This document shows, piece by piece, positions 13,665 through 52,423 of a stretch of 56,220 nucleotides of DNA. Numbering within the stretch: position 1 is the first letter of the stretch; every line of letters begins with the position of its first letter. The DNA lies in contig JAUCBJ010003545.1 of the NCBI GenBank assembly GCA_032718475.1, positions 1-56,220 of the forward strand, written 5' to 3'. This DNA comes from Nemertoderma westbladi (lineage: Eukaryota; Animalia; Xenacoelomorpha). Position numbers and translations under genes: made by a program. The notes beneath the pieces were generated by a model. That model was not told where the DNA came from. It ran no database searches and saw nothing but the letters and a program-made list of their open reading frames with translations.

Positions 13665-14157
13665 CTTTCAGCAACAAATAGTTGATGTAATATCCAGTGA
13701 CATCATAACATCTGGAGTGGAGATATTGTGCATCATTTGCGATAACTTTGAAAGTTAATAGAAAATTTTTTTCTTTGCACCAGACAGTAAGAAATGAACC
13801 CTGGCCTACCCAGAATGGTACCTTTCTAATTTATGACTTTATACATTTGTTCAAATGTATTCGCAATAACTGGATCACAGAAAAATCGAAAACTATCGAA
13901 TTTGATGGATGTGTAGCGAAATGGTCCTGTATTGAAAGTCTCTTTGAACGAGAAAAGGCATCATCAATAAAGATTGCCCATCGATTGACACAGAAGGCAG
14001 TGTACCCAAAGCCTATTGAAAGACAGGATGTTTCTGCTATGCTCCGTGTGTTTTGTGATGAAACTGTTGTTGCTTTTCGTACTCACGTTGATCCCACTGA
14101 TGATGATAAAGAAACCGCAACTTTCATTGAGAAGTTCGTTCGCGCATTTAAGATACT
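13665..14157 (+). pseudogene. P-element/THAP9-type transposase, 5' part (5'-truncated, frameshifted, interrupted by the LTR element)
   Basis: IICDN / KVNRKFF (frameshift near 13748), YDFIHLFKCIRNNWI, PKPIERQDV, ETATFIEKF...FKIL; reading frame resumes at 29382 after removing the insert and one TSD copy. Confidence 0.85.
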
Positions 14158-15380
14158 TGTAAAAGCTTTTGCTGAATTGCCCGGTTATTTTTCCTTATTT
14201 TTCCCGTAAAATACTCTGTAGTTGGTTTAATAGGCGTAAGAGGCCGTATTATTGCTGTATCGGTGTTTTTAGAGGATCTAAGAGCTATTTCTTCCGTATG
14301 TGTACTGTGGAAGGCATAGTTGATGATTCTATGGCAATTCCGTGACGCAAAAGGGGATAGCTACTCTTGAACAGTAGTTACTATGACGACGGTTAACAGC
14401 TGATATTCATACGTGTTGATTTTCTTTGTTCTTCGGCATCTCTCAGTTCAGTCAACCAATCAGAGCGTTTTTACTGTTCTTGTACAGAAATTTCCTAGAA
14501 ATCACGCAATGCTTTATGGGCAGTGTTATCATTCAGTCCTGAGCCAAGAAAGAACGGCTTTTGGAATATTTGTGCTTTTCTGCTTTTAGCCTAACACTAG
14601 TAGGCTTAATTATAAGGACATATATCCGTTATCTGACATCACACTGGGTAACTCAATGGTTAACAACTTACTCAATGCTTGGCTGATCTTGTCGTGCATA
14701 CTTTTATAACGTTATACTGCTATTTACTGTCGGTTATTCATTATATGGTTGATGAAATATTATATTTGGAATAACGAGAAATAACCCCGAAAACCCAATA
14801 TTCTTGATATACCGAAGGTAAGAGAGACAGGTTACATATAACGATTGTGACTTATGTTAAAGTGGTTTGAAGTGAATCTAATGTTATCTGATAGACCCTA
14901 CATGAGTCGGTCTGTGTTCCTTTTATATGTGACTAAAATCAGTGAAGATCGGCAGATCAGTGTGCAGTATTGTGCAGCATTGTGTATGAGTGAGACTGAT
15001 AACGAAGCATTTCCTAAAGAATGCGCCATATATGTGAATTGTAACTAAGCCATATCGTTGCATGTAGTTTAAGTCATAGCTCTGTTTATATAGATAGAGC
15101 GCCACGTCCAAAAGGAACTGTTAATATTCCCCGAAGGTGAATAATATTGTCAGAGATTATATAATACTGTCAGTCGAATAATACATTAGGCTTACATAGC
15201 AATAAGATTAAGCCGTCGAAGTCAATCTCCCGGGTATATCCAGCGGGTGAATGATCGCGCACAGATTGGTTTCAACTAGTGTAGTGAATCAAATACTTGT
15301 CAGAGGCTAAAAGCGATTTATTATCTAGAAGACATCCTAATTTGGCGGGTTAAACTGCCAAAGGTCTGAAAGCGTGAACA
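14158..15380 (+). repeat. 5' LTR (1223 bp)
   Basis: Starts TGTAAAAG, ends GAACA; only three substitutions versus the 3' LTR seen by eye. Confidence 0.97.
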
Positions 15381-15749
15381 ATAACGGATATCGCTTCTTT
15401 ATTGCAGTAAGCAATAAAGTTGAAAGTACCGGTCAAATGGTAAACCTGAACGGTCCATCTGTAGGTCAGTAGGCCCAACTGCCAGAACCGGTACTGCTGT
15501 AGGCCTGTAAGTCCAACTGCCAGAACCGGTACTTCTGTAGGTCCGTGGGCCTAACTGTCCTAACCGGTACTTCCCGTATAAGTACATTAGTATTATTCGA
15601 TTTGATTATTGTATACCGGTAGGCTGTTTAAGAGATTAGGGACTGTACACCCCTTGTTTCTTTTGGAGCTTACTTATTTCTGTCAGTTTTATTTATTTGT
15701 AGGCCAGTATTGAACAGAAGGCGTGTAAGCCTGATCATATTGTACAGAC

Positions 15750-16320
15750 AATTTGTAGGCTGGGCTGTTGTCTGATTGTTGTTAAGTCTGAACGGATTGC
15801 AGTGTGTGTAGATCACCTGTCCGATAAAGAACGGTTAGGAAGTAGGGGCAGCCAAAGCTGTAAGGTAAACCCCCAACTAAAGAATAAGTCGTACTACTGG
15901 GTTAGAACGCATACTACCTAATCATTTCGGAGTCTGCATGTCCTGTAGTTTATTTAGGCTTGAGAGTAGTCTGCCATCGTTTAGTCTGTACTTTGTTTGT
16001 GTAGTCTGTACAGGTAGCGTATAATATTTATTTAAATAATTTGTAGGCTGGATAGTTGTCTGGCTGTTATAAGGTCTGAACGGATTGCAGTGTGTGTAGA
16101 GCCTCTGTCCGATAAAGAACGGTTAGGAAGTAGGGGCAGCCAAAGCTGTAAGGTAAACCCCCATCTAAAGAATAAGTCGTACTACTGGGTTAGCACGCAT
16201 ACTACCTAACCATTTCGGAGTCTGCATGTCCTGTAGTTTGTTTAGGCTTGATAGTAGTCTGTCAGTATTTAGTCTGCATTTTGTTTGAGTGGTTTGTACG
16301 CGTAGCGTAATATTTATTAT
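15750..16320 (+). repeat. Tandem ~288-bp duplication in the retroelement 5' leader
   Basis: AATTTGTAGGCTGG...GTAGCGTA starts at 15750 and 16038, with a nearly identical core. Confidence 0.9.
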
Positions 16321-17513
16321 TCAGAGTTTATGCGATTATTCGCAACATTCATTCCCCAAGTTTGTTCCTACAATAATTGTGTTTGTTATACATACCGCTA
16401 TAGTTAAATTAACCCCGGTACTACACGGGCTGCTTGGCGTAGGTAAAGACTGGTGATTTTGTGCACCGGTCACTCCAGCAGATGCCGTGGTTCTTTTAGC
16501 TGTTCAAGTATATTTAACTACTGATTATATGTTGTACAAGTACTCGTACCTAATTTAGGGTTTAGTGTACAGTGCTTTCCGAAAGTAATTAGTGTAGGCA
16601 TTATATTTGTGTTGTAAAGTGGTTGATAAGCACGTTCGATTAGCTCTATTAACTTCTAGGTAGGAACACTCCGTGATACATAACGTAGTACCTATAGCGA
16701 TACGGCTATAGGTCGTCAGGCGGTGGTATTTTCCTATCTGGACAATGCAGTGTATTTACTACTACGTATTATTTTCAAATACCGCAGTACCCTGTCCGTT
16801 GTAATAACCAGATTTCTAACCCTTTGTTAGGCTGGTTTGTAGACTTCTTGTAAAATTACCCTAAAAATTTGTGTTTATGTATTTGTAATTAAATTTTGTG
16901 TTTATTTAGAGATTGTAATCTCACCCGAATCGTACGTAATTTGTAGTATTAAGTAACTTAGGTAAATTAGAATTATTTGTTTTAGTGTCCTATAAGTAAC
17001 ACTTCACTGAAAGCGCACCGCTTTGTGTAGTGATTACTCCCCAGAAATAATAACATTTATTTCAAACATTGACAAACCCATTAAAACGGGTATATAAATA
17101 TTATAAATCAAATCTCACGATTTATAAATAGTAGGCCTACCATACAACCATTAGGTCTCAATATCAGTTGGACTACTGCTCAAATAACGGTAATAAAGTA
17201 AGTAAAGTAACCAAGTAACCCTAAAATTCAGAAATTCAATTATTTAAAATAATTGACATACCGGTATTTGCAATAGGCTTATTATATTTATTTCAATAAA
17301 TTTAGGCTGAAATTATACCGGTACTTTGTAATTAATTCTAGTCCAGAATTATACTTATATATACTATCCCTGCAAACATTTTACGTTAATTACGCTAATC
17401 TAACGTTAGACTTTAGTCTGTTTTAGGTTAGAAAAATAAAGTTATAAAAATAACTTAGAACAAACGTTTTCTAACGTCTTATAATCGTTTAAAAACTACA
17501 TGTCTAAAATCAA

Positions 17514-17900
17514 CTAAACCCAAACGTTAAACTGACGTTCAATTTTAACATAGATTTTTAACGTTATTTTGAAACGTCTGACATTGGTTAAATTTAATCA
17601 TGTACAAAAATGACTAAACCTAAACGTTAAACAGACGTTGAATTTTAACATCAATTTTTAACATTATTTTGAAACGTCTGTCATTGGTTAAATTTAATCA
17701 TGTACAAAAATGACTAAACCCAAACGTTAAACAGACGTTGAATTTTAACATCAATTTTTAACGTTATTTTGAAACGTCAGACATTGGTTAAATTTAATCA
17801 TGAACATAAATCACTAAACCCAATATTAAACAAACGTTGAAATTTAACATCGATTTTTAATGTTAATTTAAAACGTCTGACATTGGTTAAATAGAATCAT
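17514..17900 (+). repeat. Four 100-bp subterminal tandem repeats
   Basis: CTAAACC recurs at 17514, 17614, 17714 and 17814. Confidence 0.9.
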
Positions 17901-18009
17901 TCTTGTATTAGAAAATTGTAATGTAATTTAGTCACGTTAATATTTATTGCAACAGGTCCACTGGAATATAGTGTTGTAATTATTCAGTGTCATGCAACTA
18001 TCACTCAAG

Positions 18010-19082
18010 TTGTACCTTGTGGTCTTACTTTTGTACCTGGGGGGGGGGGGGGGGGGGGTGTGGTCTTACTTTTTTTACCTGGGGGGGGGGGGGTGTCTTA
18101 CTTTTGTACTAGGGGGTCTTACTTTTGTTTCAGGGTGTCTTACTTTTGTACCAGGGGGGTCTTACTTTTGTACTTGGCGGGGTCTTACTTTTGTACCTGG
18201 AGGGGTCATACTTGGACTTACTTTTGTACCTGGGGGTCTTACACTACTTTTGTACCTAAGGGGGGGGGGGGGTGGTATTACTTTTGTACCTGCAGGTCTT
18301 ACTTTTGTTCCAGGGGAGTCTTACCTTTCTACCAGGGGGGTCTTACTTTTGTACATGGGGGGGGGGGGGGGGGCTTACTTTTGTACCTAGAGGGGTCATA
18401 CTTTTGTACCAAGGGGGTATTACTTTTGTACCTGGAGGGGTCATACCTTTGTACCTGGGAGGTCTTACTTTTGTACCTGGGGAGGGTCTTACGTTTGTAC
18501 CTGGGGGTCTTACGTTTGTACCAGGGGGTCTTACTTTTGTACCTTGGGGGGGGGGGGGGTCTTACGTTTGTACCTGAGGATCTTACTTTTGTACCTGGGG
18601 TGGGTCTTACGTTTGTACCTGGGGGCCTTACGTTTGTACCAGGGGGTCTTACTTTTGTACCAGGGGGATTTACTTTTGTACCTGGAGGTCTTACTTTTGT
18701 TCCAGGGGAGTCTTACCTTTCTACCAGGGGGGTCTTACTTTTGTACATGGGGGGTGGGGGCTTACTTTTGTACCTGGATGGGTCATACCTTTGTACCTGG
18801 GAGGTCTTACTTTTGTACCTGGGGTGGGTCTTACGTTTGTACCTGGGGGTCTTACGTTTGTACCAGGGGTTCTTACTTTTGTACCTTGGGGGGGGGGGGG
18901 GGTCTTACGTTTGTACCTTGGGGGTCTTACTTTTGTACCTGGAGTGGGGCTTACGTTTGTACCTGGGGGCCTTACGTTTGTACCAGGGGGTCTTACTTTT
19001 GTACCAGGGGGATTTACTTTTCTACCAGGGCGGGGAAGGGGGGGTCTTACATTTGTAGGGTCTTGGGTCTTTATTTTGTACT
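18010..19082 (+). repeat. Minisatellite, ~21-22-bp unit GGTCTTACTTTTGTACC(T/A)GGG with variable G tracts
   Basis: About 45-50 degenerate units; it accounts for the spurious G/L-rich ORFs here. Confidence 0.95.
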
Positions 19083-20563
19083 CCCATAATATAACTACCG
19101 TAACTGCAATATTAATTAGTTTACATGTTCTTCAATATATTATTGTGATGTGCAAAATTATTGAATTTATAACGATGCAATATTGAATATTTCTTTCAAT
19201 TTTGGTATTATTTTTTTATACTGTAGTTTTGTTTATTTCTCATATTTTTGTTTATTGAAGTTTATTTAGCCAATAAATAGTACAGTACGTTATGCCGATT
19301 TATATTACTGATATACTGTAAATTTAGCATTGAATTATTTTTTATTCCGGGCAAAATTTGTTAAATAAGTTCATTTTCGACTGCCAATTATTTATATAAA
19401 AACGGCACTACGTTTATTCAGTGTGAGTGGCTAAATAATATAAACACTGTTCGTTGCCATCGTTAAATGATTGGTGAGGTTTGATATACAGTGTACAGTA
19501 GTTAATACAAACAATAAATTGGTTTCAATCTACCCCCAGCGTCTGCAAAAAACGCAAGTCTAACGTTAAATGACGTCAGACTCTAAATAGTTATTAATTT
19601 CCTATAATTTAATTTTAAATTATCAATTAAATTGTTTGATAACTATTAAATTTAAATAATTTAATCAAATGATTTATCTAACGTAGAGGCCAAATAGGTA
19701 TGTGATAGTATTTTATATAAATCTAAACAAATTTCTTAGCAATTGATCAAAAGTCATCATAATTCTTCTCAGAAATAATCCGATATTTATTTTGCCTAAA
19801 TGCATTGAAGGTTCCACTCCTAAGGTGTGGTAGGTGTAGGGGCGTAGGCTGTGTAGGTTAGGGTTAGGTCCCCCCAGTCCCTTGCAGGTCCACCAAGTAA
19901 CTGCCGCTGTGGTCCATGAAGTAAATCTCAAACTTGATCTTTTTCATGCTTTTGAATCAAAAATAACGTATTAGTAACGTATTTTTTTAACGTATTATTG
20001 ACGTATTTTTTTAACGTATTTATTTAACGTAGTAACCCCGGCCAATAATACGTTAATTTAACGTAATGGTACGTTCATAAATAACGTTAATAATATACGG
20101 CAGTTAACGTTATTTTCAGACATGAGTTAATTAGTATGATTTGAGTAAAATTTATGTATATTTTTAACGTAGTAACCCCGGCCAATAATACGTTAATTTA
20201 ACGTAAGGGCACGTTAAAAAATAACGTTGGAATGGTAGAATATTAACGTAAATTAACGTTAAATTAACGTCAAAATGTTTGCAGGGATAACTGTAAGCTG
20301 TATACCGGTATTCCCGATAGGCCTATTATATATTTATATATATTTGTGCTAAAATTATATACCGATATTCTGTGATAAACCTAGTCTGTAATAATACTTA
20401 TATATATACTATAAGCATACCGGTATTCTAATATATTATATATATATCACGCTACACTGAGTAGCAGTATCGATAATTAATTACTAGGCTAGCAGTTAAT
20501 ACTGAATTACTAGACTTGCTTAGACTGTAATATAGCAGTAGGCATCCAACTGTACAAACAAAC

Positions 20564-23500
20564 ATGTCTGACACAAGGCAAACTCTGTCAGATAGTCTCC
20601 TAGAAACAACAGTCTGTTTATCAGATAGGAGTATAGAGAATCCCAGACAGAGGTCTGAAACCCCTCCTACTGTAAGAAAGACAACCCCTATAGTAGCTGT
20701 GTCAGAACCTAGATTAGTAGAAGCAATTTCGCAATTCGCGAAGTTATTGAAGCGCCGTAGGTCTATCATCGGTACTCGGGCCCAAGTTAAGCGGGATCAA
20801 GAAGCAGCTGCCAAACAGCAGCAACCTCCTAGCCAAGAACCTAGTTCTCAGCGGCCCGAGAGCTCCAGTAGTTCGGGTGCTGTTGAGCGGACGCCCGAAC
20901 GCGGAGCGAAGATGGCGGATACGGTTTATGATGAACGGCCAACCTATGAAGAATCAACCGACGCCACTTCTTCTCAAGAAGAAAGCGAAGGGACAGCGGA
21001 GGGGCCGCGAAAGAGAGATGCCATTGACATCTATCTGTCAGACTATCAACGTTTTTTAGGTGATGACGAGTTGAGGAGAAGGTTAGATGGACTTAGCCCT
21101 AATAATGAAGGAACCAAGCTTGTGCTGGACGCAATCGATGTGGAAATGAGGGCTGCGAACCAGGCTAAATTTGATGAACAACTCCGCATCACACGAGTCC
21201 AAGAAGAGCAAGTAAAGAAAAAACGTATAGAAGACAGAAAGAAAGCAGCAGTAGCAGCTGCCGAAGCGGAAAGGAAAGCAGCTGAAGAGGAAAGTAAAGC
21301 CGACGAAATGGAAAGGAAAGCGGCAGCGGCAGCGGCAGAGGCAGAAGCGAAAAGAAAAGCAGCCGAAATGGAAAGAAAAGCAGCCGAAATGGAAAGAAAA
21401 GCGGCAGCGGCAGCGGCAGAGGCGGAAGCGAAAAGAAAAACAGCCGAAATGAAAAGAAAAGCGGAAATGGCAGTGGCAGAAGCAGAACGTAGAGCGGCGG
21501 AAGAAATCACCCAATTAGAATTGGAAAACATTCAGGAGAATCAAGACTGCATAAATAAACAGTTAACAGCTAGTAATATGCAGATGATGAATCGATCTAC
21601 TCCCAAAAGACAGGGATATACATCATCTGAGGAAGGCGATACCACTGATACCGAAGGCAAAGGAAATAGATCTCGTCTAAGCAGACGTAAAAGAACATTC
21701 CACCGTCAGAAATTGCCTGATTTGCCTCCAGCTGTTAGAAGGCAACTAAATAACACCAACTTAGGTAGTGCAGAACCCACAGACCAAATAATTAAAATAG
21801 AAAGACTCCCTACTATAGTAGATGAGCCTGAAATAATTAGGCCTGTTCTTGAAATCACCCCTTCGGTGATAGACACACCTGTGCTCCCTGAAGTTACCTC
21901 TAAATTCCCTCTGCACAGCACTAAGCTACCTGTGCCCAGTAGAACAGCCCATGAGGCAGTTCAGGTCCTGGACCCCGAGCGAAATATTCCTGATTTGTCG
22001 CCCGTTGTCCCTCGTCCACCCGCTACAACGTTGGCGACTCCCGCTTCGGCGGTCGAATGGGTGGATGAGAGACGGCGGGGGATGGATCTCCTGCTCGGGC
22101 AGATGCAGGAGACCGTTCAGCAATTCAAGGGCACAGTAAGGGAAAGTAGGTTAGAGTTGCAAAAGGTGCAGCAAAGTATCGCGTTAGAACGCGATAAATT
22201 AGTGAACACACAAAAGGGTATACCACCACCCCCTGTAACAATGTGTCAACCCATTAGGTCTGAAGTATCCCATGCGCAAGGTGTGGAGCCTACACGCATC
22301 TATACTGCTAGCGAAGTAGAAACTCCTATAGTAAACCCTATTAAGGGTAATTATAAACCTGTTGATAATGACATTCCCTATAGACCTGATCATAATCCGA
22401 GAAATTTATATACCGATAACTCGATATTAAATAACACGATGGCCCAAGAAAGTTTTACACGACAAATGGCTAGAACCGAAGCCCGGCAAGCGGTAAAGGT
22501 TGGAGAGATCGTCAAGTTCAATGGAGATGAGATGAAATGGTTACCTTTTAATGAATATTACAAAGATAACATACAGAACTCTGTGCTATCTAATGGAGAG
22601 AAACTTAGATTCCTCATCGAGTGCTTGGAAGGATCTCCCAAGTTAATGGCGTCAAAGTTTATTGGACATCCAGACGGATTAAGACAAGTTTGGGATACAC
22701 TAAACATCAGGTATGGTAATAGGAATAACATAGCTGGGTATTTGTATGCAAAGTTGGTAGCGCCCCGAAAGTTTATTAGCAACGGGATTATAGAGTTTTC
22801 CGATGAAATTCAGGAGATCTGCAGACAATTAGATTGGCTAGGTAAGTCTCATGAGTAGCTGAGTGCTATGGTTATTAGAGCAGTGGCCTCTACTTTACCG
22901 AAGGGTGGAGTAGGTACACGCTGGGACAAGAAAGTGTTATACATGATGGAACAACAACAACGAGACCCTACCATGACTGATCTCATGACATTCTTGGATG
23001 GCGAAGTGAAATTACAGCTCATAAAGCAGTCCAGAGAGAAGACATCGGAAAACAAGGTAAGTGAGAAACCCGTCTCCAGAAGAAAGGTAACACCAGTGTG
23101 TTATACCGACGACGGCGAAAGCCAAGCTTCCCAAGAGGAGGACAGCGGGAAAGACACTGAAAGATCTTATTATGTCAATAAAACACCTAACGAACAGGGA
23201 AGTAAATTTAAGTCTCGATCCAATGACAAGAGAGAACAGGTAAGAAAAACTCCTCCTACGTCTCCCAAGAGAATTCAGGTGAGAAAGCCCGAGGAAAGAA
23301 CGAACGTGCACCACACAGCACATGTTAAAGTAAGTAACATCAAGCCCAAATGTGTGCTGTGCGACGGGCCCCACCGTTTAAATGCGTGTGATAAATTCTT
23401 AAAGAAATCATTAAAAGAGAGACGGGAAGTCATGTGGGATAAGCGGTTGTGTTATAATTGCCTCAGACGAGGACACCAACGGCGAACCTGTTACTCCGAC

Positions 23501-23692
23501 GCAAGGTGTGCAAAGTGCGGTGCGAAACATCATATCTTGTTGCACACTGAATTCGAGCGAAATAGTCCGAGTCAGGTGAGTGATTCCGAACTACATGTCC
23601 AATTCAGTGATGTGAACGACACTGATCAATCTGAGATGGAAGGATTTTCTATACGGACGAATTCTCCGACCAAAACGAATCCTGTTACTTAA
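20564..23692 (+). CDS. gag: BEL/Pao Gag (DUF1759-like domain, three zinc knuckles), with one in-frame TAG at 22856-22858
   Basis: KFNGDEMKWLPF...KLRFLIECLEG...WDTLNIRYG; CVLCDGPHRLNAC, CYNCLRRGHQRRTC, CAKCGAKHHILLH; ORFs 20564-22858 and 22868-23692 share one frame. Confidence 0.9.
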
Positions 23693-25092
23693 TAAACACC
23701 ACCGCAGTGTATCGAGCACTCATGTATGAGAAAGACACAGACAGCGACCTCACCCTAACTACTTCAGATCAACAACAATCTTGGAAAGCGCCAACTTCAA
23801 ATGTAGGAATCCGAGAATTTCCTGTAGTCCAGTTACGGGTCCACGGACCTCAGAAGAGCTATATAGTGAACGCCCTCCTGGACTCCGGCAGCACAGGAAC
23901 ATTCATCGATAAAGAACTAGCCGAAGACATCTTTGCTGGACAACCCAAGTTCCGAACCAAGCTAAACATGTCAGGGATCATGCAGGTTTGGAATTCTACT
24001 GTAGCTGCCGACTATTATATAGGTGAGTTGTCCACTCCACAGGATAAACTAGGAGAACACAGTATAAGGTCAGTCAAAATGGTGGCAATAAAGAACTTCG
24101 CTACCACCCAAGTGGAACCTTATAATTGGGACGAAGATGATCATGTCCAACAACTTAACATCCCTAGATTCGACACCGATTATCCTGGAGTACAAATATT
24201 AATCGGTCAAAACGCGCATGAGGCGCTGGAGACATTAGAGAAACGACCTACTCAACCGCAACCACTTCAGACCTATGCGGTAAGAACTAGAGTAGGCTGG
24301 TACCTTACTGGACCTTCCCGTAGAACGCTCAGGGAAAGACTGCTTCAAGATCGCGTCTGCCAGGTGAGTGAATGGGAAGACGATACTAGTGAGGGAGACG
24401 ACCCAACTGAGGGAACACCACACTCCTCAGATAATGACAATCTTAACTCCAATGTAGATCAATGGAGATATTGCCCCAAGAAGTTTAATCCAACTGACAT
24501 CGCTTCCAGAGGAGCAACTCCTCAAGAACTGACAGATACTACAGACCGGTTAGGTGAACCCGACTTCCTGAGTAAGGAGGATGAATGGCCTCCCCATCTT
24601 ACTCCGACTGAGATTAGACCAGCCAAGGGAGCGGAGAAAGTCAAACCTAAAACCCGGACGGGTGGATCGGAGTTATTTGAACCCGGGATAGATCTGTCGG
24701 TATTACATATTGCCAGGGACGACGCCGTGGATCTGGACCTCCCCACCGCGAGTGGGTCCTTCATGAAGATCAAAGAGAGCGATTGGAGCTCTGGAATATC
24801 AGACGTCTCGCAGGGACTCTCACCTCTCCTGCAGGGAGCGACGGACCACTATAGCTCCTGGAATCGGCTTTGTAAGGCCGTCGTGTACCTAGAGCGATGT
24901 TTCTATCGTCACTATTCCAGGACGAAGAGGAAACCTGGAATTGTATTCGGGATGCAGCGACTCAATCACCCAGTCGGTCGTTTGTGTTTACCGGAAGGGA
25001 ATGGAGGACTCTCCGGAAACTGTGGAAGGCAAGATTCTCTTCCCACGACCACCTCCCTAATCCTTCAAACATCTAGGGACTCCATAACGTAA
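23635..25092 (+). CDS. pol: BEL/Pao aspartic protease plus fused remnants of the RNase H end, connector and integrase C-terminus; in the -1 frame relative to gag
   Basis: ALLDSGSTGTFI (D at 23881), ILIGQN, RTRVGWYLTGP, then QWRYCPKKFNPTDIASRG..PDFL..WPP, HYSSWNRL..VYL, LNHPVGRLCL; no YxDD or integrase DDE core. Confidence 0.85.
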   Translation, partial: DGRIFYTDEFSDQNESCYLINTTAVYRALMYEKDTDSDLTLTTSDQQQSWKAPTSNVGIREFPVVQLRVHGPQKSYIVNALLDSGSTGTFIDKELAEDIFAGQPKFRTKLNMSGIMQVWNSTVAADYYIGELSTPQDKLGEHSIRSVKMVAIKNFATTQVEPYNWDEDDHVQQLNIPRFDTDYPGVQILIGQNAHEALETLEKRPTQPQPLQTYAVRTRVGWYLTGPSRRTLRERLLQDRVCQVSEWEDDTSEGDDPTEGTPHSSDNDNLNSNVDQWRYCPKKFNPTDIASRGATPQELTDTTDRLGEPDFLSKEDEWPPHLTPTEIRPAKGAEKVKPKTRTGGSELFEPGIDLSVLHIARDDAVDLDLPTASGSFMKIKESDWSSGISDVSQGLSPLLQGATDHYSSWNRLCKAVVYLERCFYRHYSRTKRKPGIVFGMQRLNHPVGRLCLPEGNGGLSGNCGRQDSLPTTTSLILQTSRDSIT

Positions 25093-25604
25093 CAACATAT
25101 GGAGTGGGTGTGTGACTCTATTATTTTATATTATTTTATTATTTTTATATTTCTGTATGTATTACTATGTAATTTTATTATAATCGTTTTATTTAATTTA
25201 GTAGAATATTATTTAGCGATTATTTATTAGATTAGTGCAATATATATTCGCGTTTATTACTTAATTACGTATATATTATATTTAGTGCGACGGCAAGAAA
25301 TAATTCTTTTCCTCCTTCCTTACTGTCCGTATTATATTATAAATACGTAACTACAGTAAGATCAAATGTCCGTACTTATTAAAGTACAATAAAGCCACTA
25401 CTATATTTAAGTATTATTGGTAGGCAGAGTATTAGGAATGCAAAGTTCAGATCCTCGTGTCTCGGCTAAACCAAGCTCTGGGTAGACCTTGGAAACGACT
25501 TGCCTCTTCACACTGACATTGCTTCGTGCGATATTGCTCTCATACTGTATATTAAATAATACATATAGTAGCGTGATGTCCCTTTAACAGTAGCGTATAA
25601 CGCA

Positions 25605-25920
25605 AAATAAATCTGTTAAACCCTTTGACCATCTGTAATTCTAGTCGATTAAGATATCGCGGCACCCACCGATATACTTGAAAGACAAATTCTAGAATCA
25701 GTGGTTAACGTCCCCAGACAAGTTCTGGAATAAATCGGTGCCCATCTCAAATATTAATTATTTAATATTTGCAAGTCTAATAAATCAAAATCTGTAAAAT
25801 TCAGATCCTTCAACAATTCTAGTCAATTAAGATATCGTAGCATTTACCGATATTCTTAAAAAGACAATTGTCATAGAATTAAGGATCTTGTGTCCCCAGA
25901 CATGTTCTAGAATCAAAATA
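25605..25920 (+). repeat. Degenerate ~178-bp tandem duplication in the retroelement 3' region
   Basis: AATTCTAGTC(G/A)ATTAAGATATCG...GTCCCCAGACA.GTTCT at about 25637 and 25815. Confidence 0.75.
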
Positions 25921-26763
25921 TGTCAATTTAATTATCAAATAATAAAATTTCAGGGAATAAATTTAAATTCATGCCTTTTAATGAATTTAATAAATTGCCA
26001 TTTTTACGCAATTTATAACATTCCCAAAATTCCATTAATTAATAGATCAAGGGAGCGGAGATTTATCTTATTATGCGTATGAGTGTGCGAAAGTCTCCCA
26101 AACATAGTCAATAGCCGATAAAATTCATAAAGTCATGTATAAAACAGGACATTGACCATTAAAGAATTACTATTAAATAACATCCCAGATCTGTATGCAT
26201 TGGAATTACCCTAATTCTACCGCTAGCTTTGCATAATGTCACCATGGCAACAACCACGCTAGAATTAGAATTGAGTTAAAAGAACAATAGAAAGCTTGTC
26301 CCATTGAATAGCATAGGGAATAAATAGCGCACTGCTAGTATCCAAGGATACATAATAATACAGTGACATTCTGGAAGGCATTGACTAACGGACAAATGGC
26401 CCGAGTGTGTGTAATTTGTGACAAGTTGTGTGTGTGGTATTTGTGAGTTTATAGGCGAATGTTACTACTAAGGTGTGTTTACAGTAGCGAGTCGCAATTG
26501 TGAAAGTAACCCTAACTCTCCAATAAGAACCTGAAGTATATCTAAGCCTTTGGGACGGACGGTGGAGTGGCTCGTGCTGGTTGTTGTAGTCGTTGTGCAG
26601 CTACGACGTTGGCGATAGGCACATCGGCGAAAGGACACCAGCGCTGAGGATCTCGCACTGTCCGGGGGCAGAGAGGGGTAGGCAGCGACGCCCGCTCGCC
26701 TAAATATAAACTCATTATAATATGGATAAACTCATATAGCAGATATGGTTGAGTTGATAGAAG

Positions 26764-27150
26764 ATGATCTTGGTATCAGGGAGATATACTCTACCTTTAC
26801 AAGCGTTTGTTGATAGCTTAATACGCGGCGATGCTGGTCCAACTGCTGCGGAGGACGACGGTCGTTATATCGAACCGCCAATGTCCCAAGAGCAGCTCGC
26901 GCGCGAGTTGGACTATAGAAAATTCGCCGCTCGATATACGCAGCGTAATGGTACATATATGGACCTCTTAACTACTGGACATTCTATCGATTTACACGAT
27001 ACGGACTATGTCGAACATATCCTACCCAGAGGAGTCGAAACGATAAACCAAAATTCTAATGCGAAAATCCTATTCGAAATCGACTCGAAAGAAAAGACAT
27101 TAAAGAAACAAATAAACGCGGTAACTCCAACATATATTTGGAATTCTTGA
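26764..27150 (+). CDS. Orphan ORF (128 aa) in the 3' region of the LTR element
   Basis: ATG-initiated open frame with natural-looking composition in an otherwise AT-rich region; no family recognised. Confidence 0.4.
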   Translation: MILVSGRYTLPLQAFVDSLIRGDAGPTAAEDDGRYIEPPMSQEQLARELDYRKFAARYTQRNGTYMDLLTTGHSIDLHDTDYVEHILPRGVETINQNSNAKILFEIDSKEKTLKKQINAVTPTYIWNS

Positions 27151-27201
27151 TAGAAGCATTGTAACAACAAATAAATATCATCCGCGTTTCCCCTACAAGA
27201 C

Positions 27202-27582
27202 ATGTGTCTTTGGTGTTATTGTGATGAATGCCCAAGACCCAACCAACAAACAGAAAGACATAAACATCCGCGGAGACGTTGCTTTAAACACGGTTTTACT
27301 CGCTATATTTACGGGAGTTTCGAGCGAAACTTGTTTGATGTATCACCTACGCTCGTTCGACTCAGACGATCCTTAAATAAACCCATGATCAGAGTTCCGG
27401 AATACTCGGTCAGACCTCCTCATTCCCAAGTGAGACCTCAAACTCTCGATCCTAATAGTATGACGGATCCTCCCGAGCTGTACTCACTACTCAAAGATCT
27501 AGTGTTACCTGAACAATTAGTCGGTGGTACCCCGGTTGTGGGCTTCCTAGATATTAACCCATTCTACCTAGACGGATTGTGA
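27202..27582 (+). CDS. Orphan Cys/His-rich ORF (126 aa) in the 3' region of the LTR element
   Basis: MCLWCYCDEC...HKHPRRRCFKH; same frame as 26764-27150; no family recognised. Confidence 0.4.
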   Translation: MCLWCYCDECPRPNQQTERHKHPRRRCFKHGFTRYIYGSFERNLFDVSPTLVRLRRSLNKPMIRVPEYSVRPPHSQVRPQTLDPNSMTDPPELYSLLKDLVLPEQLVGGTPVVGFLDINPFYLDGL

Positions 27583-28153
27583 CGCGGACACCTAATATCA
27601 CTATCCAACCGTATGGTCGTCTCCGTTTAACGCGATATAACCCTTCATCAAGGTGAAGGAGAGCGTTGTACGAAACGAGTTAAACGCTATTCTATAAAGA
27701 TCAAAAAAGAAACCTGCGTTTGTTCAGATAAACGTAAGTTATAACAGTAAGTCCAATCGATAAACGAATTGGCCTTATCTCAGTTCGATTGGGAAATCTC
27801 GAATCTCTAAGAAGATATCAAGCTTAGAAAACCCTATTCTCTGCGAGAGTTTTGGACGAACGTATCCCATGACAAGCGGAGGAAAATCAGCTCGAGGAGA
27901 AGCATATCGAAATGGACGAGACACCGACCGTAAACCCAAACCTTCTAATGCAATTGTATTGCACCCTTTACCCAGGAGTTATAGCCTTTCTCGTAAAGTG
28001 GCTCGCCCCAAAGAGAAAAGGACTCTTGCTGGCCTCGGGAAACTGCGTGAACGCCGTCCGCGCAAGAAAAACTAACTGTTTAGAGTATCTTTATGTTTTA
28101 GAAACTGTGATTTTTATATTTTATAGACTGAAAATCCCATTTTCTGGGAGCGG

Positions 28154-29376
28154 TGTAAAAGCTTTTGCTGAATTGCCCGGTTATTTTTCCTTATTTTTCC
28201 CGTAAAATACTCTGTAGTTGGTTTAATAGGCGTAAGAGGCCGTATTATTGCTGTATCGGTGTTTTTAGAGGATCTAAGAGCTATTTCTTCCGTATGTGTA
28301 CTGTGGAAGGCATAGTTGATGATTCTATGGCAATTCCGTGACGCAAAAGGGGATAGCTACTCTTGAACAGTAGTTACTATGACGACGGTTAACAGCTGAT
28401 ATTCATACGTGTTGATTTTCTTTGTTCTACGGCATCTCTCAGTTCAGTCAACCAATCAGAGCGTTTTTACTGTTCTTGTACAGAAATTTCCTAGAAATCA
28501 CGCAATGCTTTATGGGCAGTGTTATCATTCAGTCCTGAGCCAAGAAAGAACGGCTTTTGGAATATTTGTGCTTTTCTGCTTTTAGCCTAACACTAGTAGG
28601 CTTAATTATAAGGACATATATCCGTTATCTGACATCACACTGGGTAACTCAATGGTTAACAACTTACTCAATGCTTGGCTGATCTTGTCGTGCATACTTT
28701 TATAACGTTATACTGCTATTTACTGTCGGTTATTCATTATATGGTTGATGAAATATTATATTTGGAATAACGAGAAATAACCCCGAAAACCCAATATTCT
28801 TGATATACCGAAGGTAAGAGAGACAGCTTACATATAACGATTGTGACTTATGTTAAAGTGGTTTGAAGTGAATCTAATGTTATCTGATAGACCCTACATG
28901 AGTCGGTCTGTGTTCCTTTTATATGTGACTAAAATCAGTGAAGATCGGCAGATCAGTGTGCAGTATTGTGCAGCATTGTGTATGAGTGAGACTGATAACG
29001 AAGCATTTCCTAAAGAATGCGCCATATATGTGAATTGTAACTAAGCCATATCGTTGCATGTAGTTTAAGTCATAGCTCTGTTTATATAGATAGAGCGCCA
29101 CGTCCAAAAGGAACTGTTAATATTCCCCGAAGGTGAATAATATTGTCAGAGATTATATAATACTGTCAGTCGAATAATACATTAGGCTTACATAGCAATA
29201 AGATTAAGCCGTCGAAGTCAATCTCCCGGGTATATCCAGCGGGTGAATGATCGCGCACAGATTGGTTTCAACTAGTGTAGTGAATCAAATACTTGTCAGA
29301 GGCTAAAAGCGATTTATTATCTAGAAGACATCCTAATTTGGCGGGTTAAACTGCCAAAGGTCTGAAAGCGCGAACA
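28154..29376 (+). repeat. 3' LTR (1223 bp)
   Basis: Near-identical to 14158-15380; followed by TSD ATACT. Confidence 0.97.
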
Positions 29377-29381
29377 ATACT

Positions 29382-30285
29382 TAACATTCGCAGTCGCAGT
29401 GAAGACCAGCACTTAAACGACCCACTGCGCCAACCATTTACAGACTCAAATGACCCGCGACTCTCTGAGTTACTGGTGCTGGCTAACCAAATGGACTCAA
29501 TGGATTGCAAAAATGGCAAACTTCACTGTCATACTTTTACTATTGATACTGCTAAGGCCATCTGTCATACATTTCGTGGCATTGTACATTTGATTCGCCA
29601 TTGTCTCAACAATGGTTTTCAATATGTACTCCCCGGACAGTTTACCACCGATCCCCTGGAAAAGGCGTTTGGACGGATCCGACAGTCAGCAGGCGGTACT
29701 TATTTCATATCTGCAGTCCAGGCAATGCAATATTACTCTATACAAAAGACCAAATTAATAACTGCATTGGATCAAGATTTTCTAGATTTTCAATCAACTA
29801 GCGGAGCTCATAAATGTGATAACTGTGCTTTCATGCTAACCGAAGAGGACGCTGCAGTATTCGATTCCTTGTCAGCCCTTGAGGTTGACGAGTTGGCCTT
29901 CGACACAAAGTCTGCTTTGCTATATGTTGCTGGTTATATACAGCGTTATATTCCCAACGATGATGACGATGACACATACTTTTATGCAATGCAGTTTGGC
30001 GGCTTTCTTGGTGAACTAAATCGAGGGAAATTGGTTACACCATCCGATACCTTTGTCCAGTTTACATTCTTTGCTTACATCATGTTTATTAGTTTAAACA
30101 AGCACAGACTATGTCGTTTTAGTTTAACCAATATTTTTGAAACAATTGCGGATAGTTATTTCGCCCAAGTCGTGCCAAAGGTGTGCTGTACCAGAATGTG
30201 CAACATATTTCTTAATAATTACAGTGTATTAGTCACCCATACAAGCTCTATGGAAACATCAATTAAAGCAATCAAGTTGTGCTAA
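29382..30285 (+). pseudogene. P-element/THAP9-type transposase, 3' part
   Basis: (L)NIRSRSEDQHLNDPLRQP...YVLPGQFTTDPLEKAFGRIRQSAGGTYFIS, LLYVAGYI, LNRGKLVTPS; open to TAA at 30285. Confidence 0.9.
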
Positions 30286-34848: not shown

Positions 34849-37800
34849 TAGTCAACTGCTCTAAAAAAAAAAAGGCAAAAATTGGGCTAAAAAAAAAAGG
34901 AGGCTGAAATCAACTTCATAAGTACAAATTTTATTTTTTTTTAATTGCATATTAGAATTAAGCATTAAGGCCAAAATTCATGAAAAAATCGGATGCTGGG
35001 GTCCAAGCAATAAATTTTTATGATGATTAGAGTGAATTGCACTAAAAATCCTATGAAATTCTAAGCAATCGCAAGTTTGTGCTAAGGGCCTTATTTTTTT
35101 ATCTATTCCCTGTTTGGGTTATTGTATGTTCCAAATGAGCAGTAGACATGTTATGAATCGGTAATTAACATGATGTGTCAATTCCAAAATTTTCTGGCAA
35201 TTCCCCAGCCTTTTTTTTTTTAGAGCAGTTTTTTTTAGCTAAATTTCTATAAAAAAAAAGTTTCGTGTTTACTTTTTTTTCCAAAACTTTCAAATTTTAC
35301 AGTAGATATGGTACAGTTATAACCTTACAGTGGAAGGCCTATTTTTAGACAGAGACAGGCACTCAGTCAGTCATTCTGTACTGGTAGTTGGGTATGTGTT
35401 GCGCTGAGCATTCAGCTTTTCCACTTTCTAGGAACTGTTTGTCACAGGCCTACTGCATGAAGTGCAGACTGTATCATACTGTCTACATACGGACATAGGC
35501 TATAGGAGGCATGGTCACTATTCTAAAATAATGTACCCGGTATTTGGGTGCGTTATTCTAATATAACGTACCTGGTATTCGGGTACGTTTTAACCAGGGT
35601 TTTCACTTATTGCAATTTTTTACAGTACCGGTATATAAGCGATATTTACATAGATCGCCCTAGAATTGAGAATTAATTAGGCATTACTGGTTGGTTGTAT
35701 TGAGTTGGAACATGCCATCAGGAGGAAGAGTAGGTAAAGCGAAAGCACAAAAGGTGCGAAAGAGCAATGCTGAAAAACGCCATGGGATAAGTTTAGATGC
35801 TGCAATCAAGGCTAGACAGGAAGGAATGTCTTTTCCACAAATACAGACTAAATTCGGAATTTCGTCAACAACTATTACCAAACATCTTAAACTTAGAGAA
35901 GGTGTAGCTGAATGGCAGGGTTCAGGTCGGAAGCCATACTTGACAAAAGTGGACCCTACTTTGGAAAGTACCTTAGCGAGTCTACTTGAGTTAATGGAAC
36001 GTTCCGGCTTTGGATTACTTCGTGAAGAGATACCAAAGATAATAAGGGAATATCTCAATAAGAATGATATATCTGTAAACTTCTTTAAAGGTAACATGCC
36101 TGGTGATGCATGGGTTACTAACTTTATGGGTCGACATGACCTATCACTAAAGAAACCAGTCCCAATGCAGAAGGGAAGGAAAGAAGCAACAATGGATCCA
36201 TTTAAGGTAGAGAAGTTTTACGATCTCTTAACTGAGACTATTGACAAATTGGATCTAAGAGACAAACCAAGCCATATTCTCAACCTGGATGAGTCTGCAC
36301 TATGTGAAGATCCATCGAAACGTAAACTTGTAGGACGTAAAGGAAAGAAGGCATTCAGGGTGACACCTGGTGGTGGGAGACAGAACTATACAGTTCTGGC
36401 CTTTGCAAAGGCAGATGGCACCGCTATGGACCCACATGTGGTATTTGAAGGAGTTCGATTCCAATACCAATGGTTGGGCCATACAAGATCTATATGCCCA
36501 AATCTTAGCTATGATGTGACTAAGTCTGGGTGGATGAATTTACAAAGCTGGCATAAAGTAATTAAGGACAGGATAGTTGAGGGAATTAAGGAGCGGCCAT
36601 TATTATTGGTAGTGGATGGTGCCAAATGCCATTTGGGATTAGAAACTCTAGAGTTGTGTCGGGATAACAATATATCTGTTCTCAAGTTTCCATCACATGT
36701 AACTGATGTCTTGCAACCTCTTGATGTCTCTATGTTTCGTCCATTTAAAGCTAAGTATGAGACAATGTTGCAAACGAGGAATGCTGCAACTGGAGCCGGT
36801 TCTGTACCCAAGGCTGAGTTTCTTGAGATATTATCAACAGCTTGGAAGGAGTCAGTAACAAAGGAGATAGTCATCAAGGGGTTTCAAACAACAGGAATCT
36901 ATCCACCTGACAGTACTAAATATGATAAGAAGCGATTTACAGACCCTCAGAAGAATTCCAGGTTTGATCTTTGGGTTGCTGCCGTAAGCCTACTGATTCA
37001 AAGGGAGATCCAAAGCTTCCTGATGTCGAAGAGGAGGAGCAGGAGATTCATCATGAGGACCAGGCACCAGTGGTCCTTGAACAGCAAGCGGGGAGACTGG
37101 GAGGAAAACCCTCTGAACCCATAGCTGAAGACTTACCTTTGGCTAATTTGACACTCAGCAGTGTAACAGACTCTGATGGGTCTGTGTCAAGTGACATAGT
37201 GACACCTAGATCATCTATATCATCTGCTTCACGTTTATCTACTTCATCACAACGATCTTTGGATAACTTAATCATACCACCATGTCCTGTAGAGAGTTGT
37301 CCACCTGGTTATGGTTGGCAGAAACAGGTTGTTTGGGTACAGGTGCCAGTTGCGGGTCAATTGGAAGTGATCATTGCCAACCGGGGAAAGGAACACCGTA
37401 AACCGCGGAAGAAGACCACTGAACTTGGAAGTGGAATTGTTCCTGGTGCCCAGGTGCTAACCCATGATGTTGTTCTTAATGCCATTAGGGCGAAGGAAGA
37501 AGAGAATAAGCGTAAACAGGAAGAGAAGGAGAAACGTCGTCAAGTTCGTCTTGCAAAGAAGAAGGATAAAGAGAACCAGCCACAAAAAAAAGGAAACCGC
37601 AAACAAAAGACCAAGGAAACACCAGATACATCAGAGGAGGAAGAGTTATCTGAGAGCCCAGACGAATCGGGAGATGAATATAGTGGTGATGAGGATGGGT
37701 ATTCGAGAAGTGACGCTGATCCCACCCCAGTCGCATCACCAATGAAGAAGAAATCTCGCCAATCTGTTAGAAGCAAACCGAGTCAGCAATCTAGATCATT

Positions 37801-41704: not shown

Positions 41705-41882
41705 GTGAGTTTAAGTACCGTATCTGTTTTAGGAATGCGATGCGAACGTAGGGAAATAGGGGGGAATTTACACAGGAAAATATCCTGAAATTTTTAGTTT
41801 TTTCTCTTTTTTTTTATTTTTGCAATTTTTCGAAGAAAAATGCAGAAATGTAAATCAAACATAGTAGAGTAATTTACAATTA

Positions 41883-44800
41883 TGCTAGGTGTAGCAGTGT
41901 TATGTGTAGCATTGCTAGGTGTAGCAGTGCTATAGGTGTAACAGTGCTAGGTGTAGCAGTGTTATGTGTAGCAGTGCTAGGTTTAGCAATGCTAGGTGTA
42001 GCAGTGCTAGGTGTAGCAGTGCTAGGTGTAGCTGTGCTAGGTGTAGCAGTGCTAGGTGTAGCAGTGCTAGGTGTAGCAGTGTTGTGTAGCAGTGCTAGGT
42101 GTAGCAGTGTTAGGTGTATCATTGCTAGGTGTAGCAGTGCTAGGTGTAGCATTGCTAGGTGTAGCAGTGCTAGGTGTATCATTGCTAGGTGTAGCAGTGC
42201 TAGGTGTAACAGTGCTAGGTGTAGCAGTGTTATGTGTAGCAGTGCTAGGTGTAGCAGTGTTATGTGTAGCAGTGCTAGGTGTAGCAGTGCTAGGTCTAGA
42301 AGTGATAAGGTGTAGCAGTGTTAGGTGTAGCAGTGCTAGGTGTAGCAGTGCTAGGTGTAGCTGTGCTAGGTGTAGCAGTGCTAGGTGTAGCAGTGCTAGG
42401 TGTAGCATTGCTAGGTGTAGCAGTGCTAGGTGTAGCAGTGTTGTGTAGCAGTGCTAGGTGTAGCAGTGTTAGGGAGAGCAGTGCTAGTTTGTAGCAGTGC
42501 TAGGTGTAAGTGCTAGGTATAGCAGTGCTAGGTGTAGCATTGCTAGGTGTAGCAGTGCTAGGTGTATCATTGCTAGGTGAAGCAGTGCTAGGTGTAACAG
42601 TGCTAGGTGTAGCAGTGTTATGTGTAACAGTGCTAGGTGTAGCAGTGCTAGGTCTAGAAGTGATAAGGTGTAGCTGTGTTAGGTGTAGCAGTGCTAGGTG
42701 TAGCAGTGCTAGGTGTAGCTGTGCTAGGTGTAGCAGTGCTAGGTGTAGCAGTGTTGTGTAGCAGTGCTAGGTGTAGCAGTGCCAGTTTGTAGCAGTGCTA
42801 GGTGTAAAAGTGCTAGGTGTAGCAGTGCTAGGTGTAGCATTGCTAGGTGTAGCAGTGTTGTGTAGCAGTGCTATGTGTAGCATTGATAGGTGTAGCAGTG
42901 CTAGGTGTAGCAGTGCTATGTGTAGCATTGATAGGTGTAGCAGTGCTAGGTGTAGCAGTGTTAGGTGGAGCAGTGCTAGTTTGTAGCAGTGCTAGGTTTA
43001 AAAGTGCTAGGTGTAGCAGTGCTATATATGTGTAGCTGTGCTAAGGTGTAGCAGAGATAGGTGTAGCAGTGCTAGGTGTAGCTGTGCTAGGTGTAGCATT
43101 GCTAGGTGTAGCATTGCTAGGTGTAGCATTGCTAGGTGTAGCAGTGCTAGGTGTAGCAGTGCCAGGTGTAGCAGAGCTTGGTCTAGCATTGCTAGGTCGT
43201 GTAGCATTGCTAGGTGTAGCATTGCAAGGTGTAGCAGTACTAGGTCTAGCAGTGCTAGGTGTAGCATTGCCAGGTGTAGCAGAGCTAGGTGTAGCATTGC
43301 TAGGTGTAGCATTGCAAGGTGTAGCAGTACTAGGTCTAGCAGTGCTAGGTGTAGCATTGCCAGGTGTAGCAGAGCTAGTTGTAGCATTGATAGGTGTAGC
43401 ATTGCTAGGTGTAGCATTGCAAGGTGTAGCAGTACTAGGTCTAGCAGTGCTAGGTGTAGCATTGCCAGGTGTAGCAGAGCTAGGTGTAGCATTGTTAGGT
43501 GTAGCAGTGCTAGGTGTAGCAGTGCTATGTGTAGCATTGATAGGTGTAGCAGTGCTAGGTGTAGCAGTGTTATGTGTAGCAATGCTAGGTGTAGCATTGC
43601 TAGGTGTAGCATTGCTAGGTGTAGCATTGCTAGGTGTAGCAGAGCTAGGTGTAGCAGTGTTGTGTAGCAGTGCTAGGTGTAGCAGTGTTAGGTGGAGCAG
43701 TGCTAGTTTGTAGCAGTGCTAGGTGTAGCAGTGCTAGGTGTAGCATTGCCAGGTGTAGCAGAGCTAGGTGTAGCATTGATAGGCGTAGCATTGCTAGGTG
43801 TAACATTGCAAGTTGTAGCATTGCTAGGTGTAGCAGTGCCAGGTGTAGCAGAGCTTGGTCTAGCATTGCTAGGTCGTGTAGCATTGCTAGGTGTAGCATT
43901 GCAAGGTGTAGCAGTACTAGGTCTAGCAGTGCTAGGTGTAGCATTGTCAGGTGTAGCAGAGCTAGGTGTAGCATTGCTAGGTGTAGCATTGCTAGGTGTA
44001 GCATTGCAAGGTGTAGCAGTACTAGGTCTAGCAGTGCTAGGTGTAGCATTGCCAGGTGTAGCAGAGCTAGTTGTAGCATTGATAGGTGTAGCATTGCTAG
44101 GTGTAGCATTGCAAGGTGTAGCAGTACTAGGTCTAGCAGTGCTAGGTGTAGCATTGCCAGGTGTAGCAGAGCTATGTGTAGCATTGTTAGGTGTAGCAGT
44201 GCTAGGTGTAGCAGTGCTATGTGTAGCATTGATAGGTGTAGCAGTGCTAGGTGTAGCAGTGTTATGTGTAGCAATGCTAGGTGTAGCATTGCTAGGTGTA
44301 GCATTGCTAGGTGTAGCATTGCTAGGTGTAGCAGTGTTGTGTAGCAGTGCTAGGTGTAGCAGTGTTAGGTGGAGCAGTGCTAGTTTGTAGCAGTGCTAGG
44401 TGTAGCAGTGCTAGGTGTAGCATTGCCAGGTGTAGCAGAGCTAGGTGTAGCATTGATAGGCGTAGCATTGCTAGGTGTAACATTGCAAGTTGTAGCATTG
44501 CTAGGTGTAGCATTGCTAGGTGTAGCATTGCTAGGTGTAGCATTGCTAGGTGAGGCATTGCAAGGTGTAGCAGTACTAGGTGTAGCAGTGCCAGGTGTAG
44601 CAGAGCTAGGTGTAGCATTGATAGGCGTAGCATTGTTAGGTGTAACATTGCAAGGTGTAGCATTGCTCGGTGTAGCATTGCTAGGTGTAGCATTGCTAGG
44701 TGAGGCATTGCAAGGTGTAGCAGTACTAGGTGTAGCAGTGCTAGGTATAGCATTGCCAGGTGTAGCAGAGCTAGGTGTAGCTGTGCTGGGTGTAGCATTG

Positions 44801-44985
44801 CTAGATGTAGCAGTACTAGATGTAGTAGTGTTGTGTGTAGCAGATGTAGGTGTAGCAGAGCTAGGTGTTGCAGTGCTAGGTGTAGCATTACCAGGTGTAG
44901 CAGAGCTAGGTGTAGCAGTGCTAGGTGTAGCATTGCCAGGTGTAGCAGAGCTAGGTGTAGCTGTGCTAGGTGTAGCATTGCTAGC
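41883..44985 (+). repeat. 15-bp minisatellite TGCTAGGTGTAGCA(G/T), about 200 units, with higher-order duplications
   Basis: Continuous array; blocks of about 650-680 bp recur (e.g. near 43070, 43716 and 44393). Confidence 0.97.
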
Positions 44986-45117
44986 TTTTCTGGTTTTGTT
45001 TGTAATCTAATGATGGTACTTGTTAATTACAACCATAATATTTACCATTTGATTATAAAAATATTTACTGGTTACTGTGAGTGAGCATATGATTGTCATT
45101 AACATTATTTGTACCAG

Positions 45118-52302: not shown

Positions 52303-52423
52303 TTGGATCCTTCGATTCAGTTACCGGTTAACGAACGTTTCTTTGGGGAACATCAACCGGTGGCGCGGTGCTCCGCATATATGGAATCACGGGAGAATAC
52401 GAGGAGATTCAAACTGGCCCCGG
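52303..52423 (+). CDS. CAPN: Calpain exon 8 (LDPSIQL...RENTRRFKLAPG); 3' boundary uncertain because it runs into the array
   Basis: ttgtag|TTG; matches domain III REVxxRFxLPPG; first donor CCGG|gtaagt at 52423/52424. Confidence 0.85.

Follow-up and report, generated by a model that had tools for sequence, protein, structure and literature searches.

Taken together, the sequence comparisons and folding predictions presented here suggest that a BEL/Pao element in the window (the whole 56,220-nt stretch of Nemertoderma westbladi DNA analysed; parts of the element lie on its + strand unless stated) probably primes minus-strand DNA synthesis with an 11-mer of its own RNA, which would fold back onto the position just past the 5' LTR, be cut after 14632 by the RNase H of a helper and, once extended, jump to the 3' LTR. 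As the initial annotation had pointed out, the 5' LTR ends at 15380 and is followed not by a TGG site but by 11 nt (15381-15391, the primer-binding position) that are exactly complementary to 14622-14632 of the LTR, the candidate self-primer. The sequence ATATCCGTTAT is found on the + strand at 14622-14632 and 28618-28628, and on the - strand at 15381-15391. At offset 0 the complementarity covers 11 nt: it does not enter the LTR end and stops at 15391, so that the match is indeed confined at the LTR boundary. In dinucleotide shuffles of the LTR a match arose at offset 0 in 16 of 20,000 and at any offset from 0 to 5 in 32 of 20,000, which agrees with the earlier chance estimate of about 1e-3, and only two of 12,762 internal 11-mers have a complement in the LTR, namely the candidate primer site and one other. 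There is no TGG 0-5 nt from the LTR end, and hence no 18-nt tRNA-Arg or tRNA-Gly site of the kind described by the ICTV; what is present is the feature from which self-priming has been predicted in published work, a perfect LTR complement of at least 10 nt beginning 0-5 nt past the 5' LTR. No tRNA genes were found within the window, and an Rfam scan of 14000-29500 returned a single weak match, far below the gathering score.

The element spans 14158-29376 (15.2 kb) and is flanked on each side by an identical 5-bp ATACT (14153-14157 and 29377-29381), its target duplication. Its LTRs (14158-15380, TG..CA, 1223 bp, and 28154-29376, which holds the second copy of the 11-mer) differ at three of 1223 positions (14433, 14831 and 15375) and are 99.75% identical; the element is young and was recently inserted. 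Gag (20531-23692), whose frame is split by an in-frame stop at 22856-22858, carries DUF1759 (PF03564, E 2.4e-9, above the Pfam cut-off) and Cys-His zinc knuckles, and the next frame (23635-25092) encodes an aspartyl protease (PF13650, E 0.0024, below the Pfam cut-off) and then a short remnant that matches the end of a BEL/Pao RNase H, most of which is missing. These two domain matches bear out the BEL/Pao label of the initial annotation, and the further marks of the superfamily are present as TG..CA LTRs, a short target duplication and a purine-rich tract preceding the 3' LTR (28146-28153); from the order PR-RT-RH-IN the reverse transcriptase and integrase are missing. The proteins are of BEL/Pao and not of Ty3/gypsy chromovirus type, which sets the element outside Tf1/sushi. 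Since its frames hold DUF1759, zinc knuckles, protease and an RNase H end without reverse transcriptase or integrase, the element is, as judged from its coding content, a non-autonomous BEL/Pao derivative, and with no reverse transcriptase of its own it would need the RT and RNase H of a helper. DUF1759 was present in all 21 long relatives scanned, from 99 representatives matched; the protease region matched six proteins among 1,511 candidates, one of them named from pearl oyster, and a search with the gag C-terminus gave no long homologue. Gag and protease slightly favour a marine group (192 and 186 bits versus 179 for the best other protein), so the element probably belongs, by a weak placement, to a marine-invertebrate BEL/Pao branch; having no RT, it takes no firm position in an RT tree. 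Patterns of the element family had 0 matches in metagenome contigs, six phage-collection matches to a 17-mer of the family were taken as chance, and no BEL/Pao relatives were found in viral contigs.

Part of the element's excess length comes from tandem arrays of 38-, 288-, 100- and 21-22-bp units in its leader of about 5 kb (15451-20274). Between protease and 3' LTR, 26761-27582 holds short frames with no Pfam match, possibly a captured or extra gene, for which the only Atlas leads were weak ones to Rep3 winged-helix (at most 0.88). The element interrupts a P-element/THAP9-type transposase frame (13709-14157 and 29377-30285), the left part of which matches Pfam TNP-like_GBD and the right part no Pfam family. 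Elsewhere the window contains a pogo/Tigger-type DDE_1 transposase frame with a Psq domain (35670-37124), a separate RVT_1 frame unmatched by BEL/Pao proteins (49429-51039), and long satellite arrays of 15-bp and 21-bp units (41862-45026 and 52316-56220).

Support for self-priming comes through BEL/Pao families outside the window, in which the same arrangement recurs with different letters. An alignment of five protease matches served as query to gather loci: 80 in metagenome contigs, the best of 450 confirmed, and 11 in genome contigs. In 14 of the 91, direct repeats fixed where the LTR ends on its 3' side; L022, which belongs to the family of L023, and L025, whose end is unclear, were left out, so that 12 families remained. 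Each was scored by the longest complement of its post-LTR sequence (offsets 0-5) in its own LTR, contiguous or across any GT..AG. Eleven of the 12 have an own-LTR match of 10-15 nt at offsets 0-4, in differing letters, and the remaining family, L092, matches over only 8 nt before a mismatch. As in the window element, the match is contiguous in three (L038, L079 and L089), and in eight it is split across an intron of 76-186 nt (L008, L012, L023, L034, L041, L043, L053 and L093). When the own LTR was shuffled, 0-2 of 150 trials attained the score in each of the eleven families, as against 36 of 150 in L092 and 3 of 150 in the window element; among mismatched LTR/site pairs (n=156) six reached 10 and two reached 11, the latter both sister families. 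TGG occurs at offset 1 in one of the 12 (L093). Because the letters of the post-LTR site change together with the family's own LTR, self-priming appears well supported, with the qualification that there are fewer hosts than families, since related assembly series supplied several of the loci. This recurrence is also what sustains the broader suggestion of the initial annotation that a BEL/Pao family self-primes, to which the behaviour of the window family's own copies, breaking after the 11-mer, adds; its Tf1-derived detail on the RNA start fares less well (see below).

The predicted junctions resemble true splice sites in a search that had allowed any GT and any AG: eight of nine have a GTRAG donor and eight of nine a pyrimidine-rich YAG acceptor, against a background of 19 of 412 GT sites and 55 of 257 AG sites with GTACGT included, this ninth donor having been joined to the donor pattern post hoc. 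An AATAAA or ATTAAA lies 11-97 nt past the primer end in 11 of the 12 families, which fits a short R region starting there. Against self-priming in the window element stand the lack of either hexamer in its LTR and a primer lying 748 nt from the LTR end, versus 62-203 nt in the relatives. For 13 loci whose LTR start alone was known, a de novo scan gave 10-15-nt candidates with plausible ends in seven (L011, L013, L014, L029, L044, L046 and L021), two of which repeat counted families; as shuffles reached 7-12, these candidates were not counted. By eye, a GGA-containing motif stands just upstream of the primer in L008, L012, L023, L034, L041, L043, L053, L079, L092 and L093, and at 14616-14619 in the window. 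The LTRs of L041 end in TA, not CA (9139 and 15624), with the 5-bp target duplication intact, and eleven BEL/Pao loci (L087-L097) sit within prokaryote genome bins, which suggests animal host DNA there.

Copies of the window's own family provide a second line of evidence. The window LTR is partly present, as contigs only, in six runs from four studies; over 14100-15740 the family is diverse, with 209 places varying at 5% or more, and its contigs continue over the LTR end into the leader. For 14540-14730 we compared 320, 215, 74 and 3 contigs from four runs and three samples. There, 14590-14592 and 14686 are the only positions listed with substitutions at 2% or more, in counts that under-represent letters close to contig ends, and between them 14593-14633, which holds a TATA-like TATAAG and the 11-mer, has no substitution listed; taken alone, this 41-nt invariant stretch carries little weight, given a Poisson P of 0.055 at the rate of the family. 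In all four runs, moreover, contigs depart from the window sequence at 14633-14637 and return at 14686-14694. The gap is bridged by three contigs with other letters, the loose ends are mutually unlike, and the window's own version contains a repeated 8-mer, so that directly after the 11-mer lies a patch of about 60 nt (14634-14693) that varies between family copies and is a candidate strand-transfer scar. Four contigs of X2 depart at 14615 and appear different within the 11-mer. The break falls 1-5 bases past the primer's 3' end, where a self-primed strong-stop strand would end, and a break this sharp right after the 11-mer supports self-priming, so far as contig comparison can speak to it. 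The available part of PMC3035444 describes untemplated base addition by reverse transcriptases, strong in the Tf1 enzyme, and possible extension of the added bases on an acceptor in vitro; the patch would have arisen from errors or added bases at the strand jump. A similar patch was sought in eight outside LTR pairs: there was none in seven, all of them near-identical pairs, and one could not be aligned.

Where the RNA begins bears on how closely the element would follow Tf1. The initial annotation had proposed that the 11-mer forms the first 11 nt of the RNA, with a start at or very near 14622, and this is doubtful from the promoter layout, because TATAAG (14611-14616) lies only 11 nt upstream of the 11-mer and the conserved stretch reaches about 29 nt upstream of it. 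At the usual spacing a TATA-like box at 14611 would presumably direct a start near 14640, beyond the 11-mer. An initiator motif at 14588, together with a downstream element at +28, fits the window LTR; inspection of the relatives by eye does not bear the pair out, so 14588 is only a candidate start. The predicted primer helix is worth -12.0 kcal/mol, and in whole-leader folds the predicted primer pairing is about 0.95 for RNA starts at 14588, 14612 and 14622, 0.24 at 14600, 0.10 at 14582 and at most 0.003 at 14570 or earlier. The drop for other starts occurs because 14998-15051 and 15304-15314 pair with the primer region instead; with 14818-15303 held unpaired, predicted pairing is 0.84-0.97 for starts from 14582. 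The first of these, 14998-15051, is a broken inverted complement of 14603-14633 and a predicted mask of the primer in far-upstream-start RNAs, and the second faces 14582-14592, a second perfect 11-bp complement that would rival primer pairing if transcribed. In unphased family contigs the T run of this second complement changes length (14583-14584), as does the facing A run (15308).

An 8-bp U5 hairpin (15341-15362) and a 9-bp leader hairpin just past the primer-binding position (15397-15419) are stable in prediction; the former had been placed at 15343-15360, and it is indeed predicted, though longer than described, with 15341-15348 paired to 15355-15362 at a probability of 0.95. The whole fold favours a U5 stem at 15372-15377 together with the leader hairpin rather than the duplexes of the Tf1 pretzel. 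With the site blocked, a U5/leader stem of 5 bp forms, which 18 of 200 shuffles also reach, and such stems occur in three of 12 relatives. Pairing of U5 with the 45 nt upstream of the primer beats shuffles (at most 9 of 200) in the window and two of 12 relatives, and on that count was rejected as a general feature.

By the mechanism that we propose, the RNA would begin at 14622 or some tens of bases before it, and fold back so that 14622-14632 pairs with 15381-15391. By analogy with Tf1, an RNase H cut after 14632 would then free a 3' OH pointing into U5, from which the RT could copy through U5 and R as far as about 14633, where the template would now end, before jumping to the 3' LTR, and errors or added bases at this jump would build the variable patch at 14634-14693. 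The window family itself may represent the intron-less form of a lineage whose primer is assembled by splicing of an LTR intron. In the window the 11-mer is contiguous, and splicing would at best yield a 10-nt match, at weak sites. The L079 locus has an acceptor directly before the primer's 3' part in its 5' LTR piece and an unbroken primer in its 3' LTR; these pieces are 88% alike and may be different copies joined by assembly. A FastTree tree built from RT-RNase H of 36 sequences, L092 and L091 not among them, with two stand-ins serving as the root and no clade test, scatters the contiguous-primer families among the split ones. This scatter, with the two forms of L079, suggests that the window 11-mer may be a fused exon joint. 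No intron-bearing copy of the window family was seen among the 22 loose ends listed (of 44). A strong splice-donor-like GTAAGA stands downstream of the primer as a candidate (14818-14823), and an intron ending at the acceptor at 15303 is doubtful, as this site is altered in most family copies; a strong acceptor-like site at 14589, combined with donors at 14236 or 14296, gave no match to the primer-binding site. Pushing these observations further, we advance with some hesitation, and at slightly less than even confidence, a scheme in which a large marine-invertebrate BEL/Pao branch dropped tRNA priming and leaves it to the host spliceosome to join two LTR exons into the primer, priming being thereby restricted to the spliced 5' copy, and the intron-less window family is controlled instead by start-site choice and the masking fold, its 60-nt patch logging strand-jump bases over successive cycles and so mapping the cut site.

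Several other readings of the 11-mer were weighed against self-priming from the 5' end of the RNA. The primer might instead come from the 3' LTR copy: transcription would start near 14634-14640, leaving the 11-mer in U3, the copy near the 3' end of the same or a partner RNA would be cut, and the patch would mark the capped 5' end. TATAAG at 14611 accords with such a start, the conserved stretch could be its promoter, and the patch begins where that start would fall; however, in eight of 12 relatives the primer arises only by splicing while the DNA keeps the intron, and since a spliced 3' copy would transmit the intron loss at each cycle, it is the 5' copy that should prime, which makes priming from the 3' copy quite unlikely. 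The pairing might also be structural or regulatory, serving packaging, dimer formation or a translation switch, with synthesis started by a different primer, for instance a tRNA fragment. The LTR is in fact rich in long-range complements to 14560-14640 (six stems of at least 8 bp, including the second perfect 11-mer; 2 of 2,000 shuffles), yet the site differs in nearly every family while tracking the family's own LTR, and it always lies 0-4 nt past the LTR end with the primer's 3' end facing U5, a register for which a merely structural helix would have no need, so that we consider this reading unlikely.

That the match is a coincidence in a decayed element that lost its tRNA site is very improbable. 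The 11-mer, at about 1e-3, was chosen after the fact from a genome-wide reading, and the element is defective, both of which would favour coincidence; but the LTRs are 99.75% identical, family contigs run across the site, and the same trait is found in 11 of 12 outside families. Together the outside families and the break between copies appear to have largely refuted this reading already.

To our knowledge BEL/Pao is the least studied LTR superfamily. If self-priming from the element's own RNA is true here, such priming would extend to all three LTR retrotransposon superfamilies, filters based on tRNA sites would presumably miss such elements, a splice-built primer would couple the onset of reverse transcription to the host's RNA processing, and the variable patch would allow a cut site, after 14632, to be predicted from DNA alone. 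It would also bear on whether tRNA priming came late, a question raised in the accessible portion of PMC3601003. New here are the test on 12 outside families and the sequence break at the primer's end. In the literature searched, which covers few subscription papers or Repbase reports so that an earlier mention is possible, neither self-priming nor a spliced primer was found for BEL/Pao in the titles and abstract openings listed; in the parts available, PMC3601003, PMC5445492 and PMC5443660 treat self-priming only for other groups, the BEL/Pao or LTR surveys PMC554778, PMC3118150, PMC6238403 and PMC2774666 gave no text on PBS or priming in a term search of the main text, and PMC8220671 mentions the PBS only generically in the part seen.

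In the ICTV description Belpaoviridae are tRNA-primed, their 18-nt primer site pairing with the 3' end of tRNA-Arg or tRNA-Gly, and BEL/Pao replication is called poorly understood (PMC8742986). The window element shares with them the DUF1759 gag, zinc knuckles, protease, a TG..CA LTR near 1.2 kb and the purine tract, and differs in being 15.2 kb long without tRNA site, RT or integrase. Like the fungal copia element GalEa it has no tRNA site at the usual position; GalEa, however, as far as the available text of PMC5445492 goes, has a conserved local hairpin and no LTR complement, whereas here the complement lies in the LTR. For Tcn1 chromoviruses and the plant TAR copia elements (Houba, Osr-1) self-priming was predicted from complementarity of at least 10 bp starting 0-5 bp past the LTR, and the window element shows complementarity of that kind; those are plant gypsy and copia lineages, for which the accessible text mentions no intron-built primer (PMC6317226). 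The closest likeness is to Tf1 and Tf2 of Schizosaccharomyces pombe, Tj1, Tosmo and Tf1/sushi, where, in the parts of PMC7175516, PMC4600332 and PMC10085805 available, an 11-nt LTR segment is complementary to a site after the 5' LTR, there is no tRNA site, and RNase H of Tf1 cuts between bases 11 and 12; Tf2 also makes a primer-less RNA from a downstream start, as the available part of PMC5341516 reports. The window element likewise has an 11-nt LTR complement directly past its 5' LTR and no tRNA site. Unlike these Ty3/gypsy chromoviruses it has a BEL/Pao gag and no chromodomain integrase, and unlike Tf1 its loop is about 750 nt, the 11-mer is only a candidate for the RNA 5' end, the three-duplex 'pretzel' is not clearly present in the predicted fold, and in most of its relatives the predicted primer spans two joined exons, an arrangement foreign to Tf1. 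By this comparison, the window feature likely works in the manner of Tf1 self-priming, yet in an element that is not a member of Tf1/sushi.
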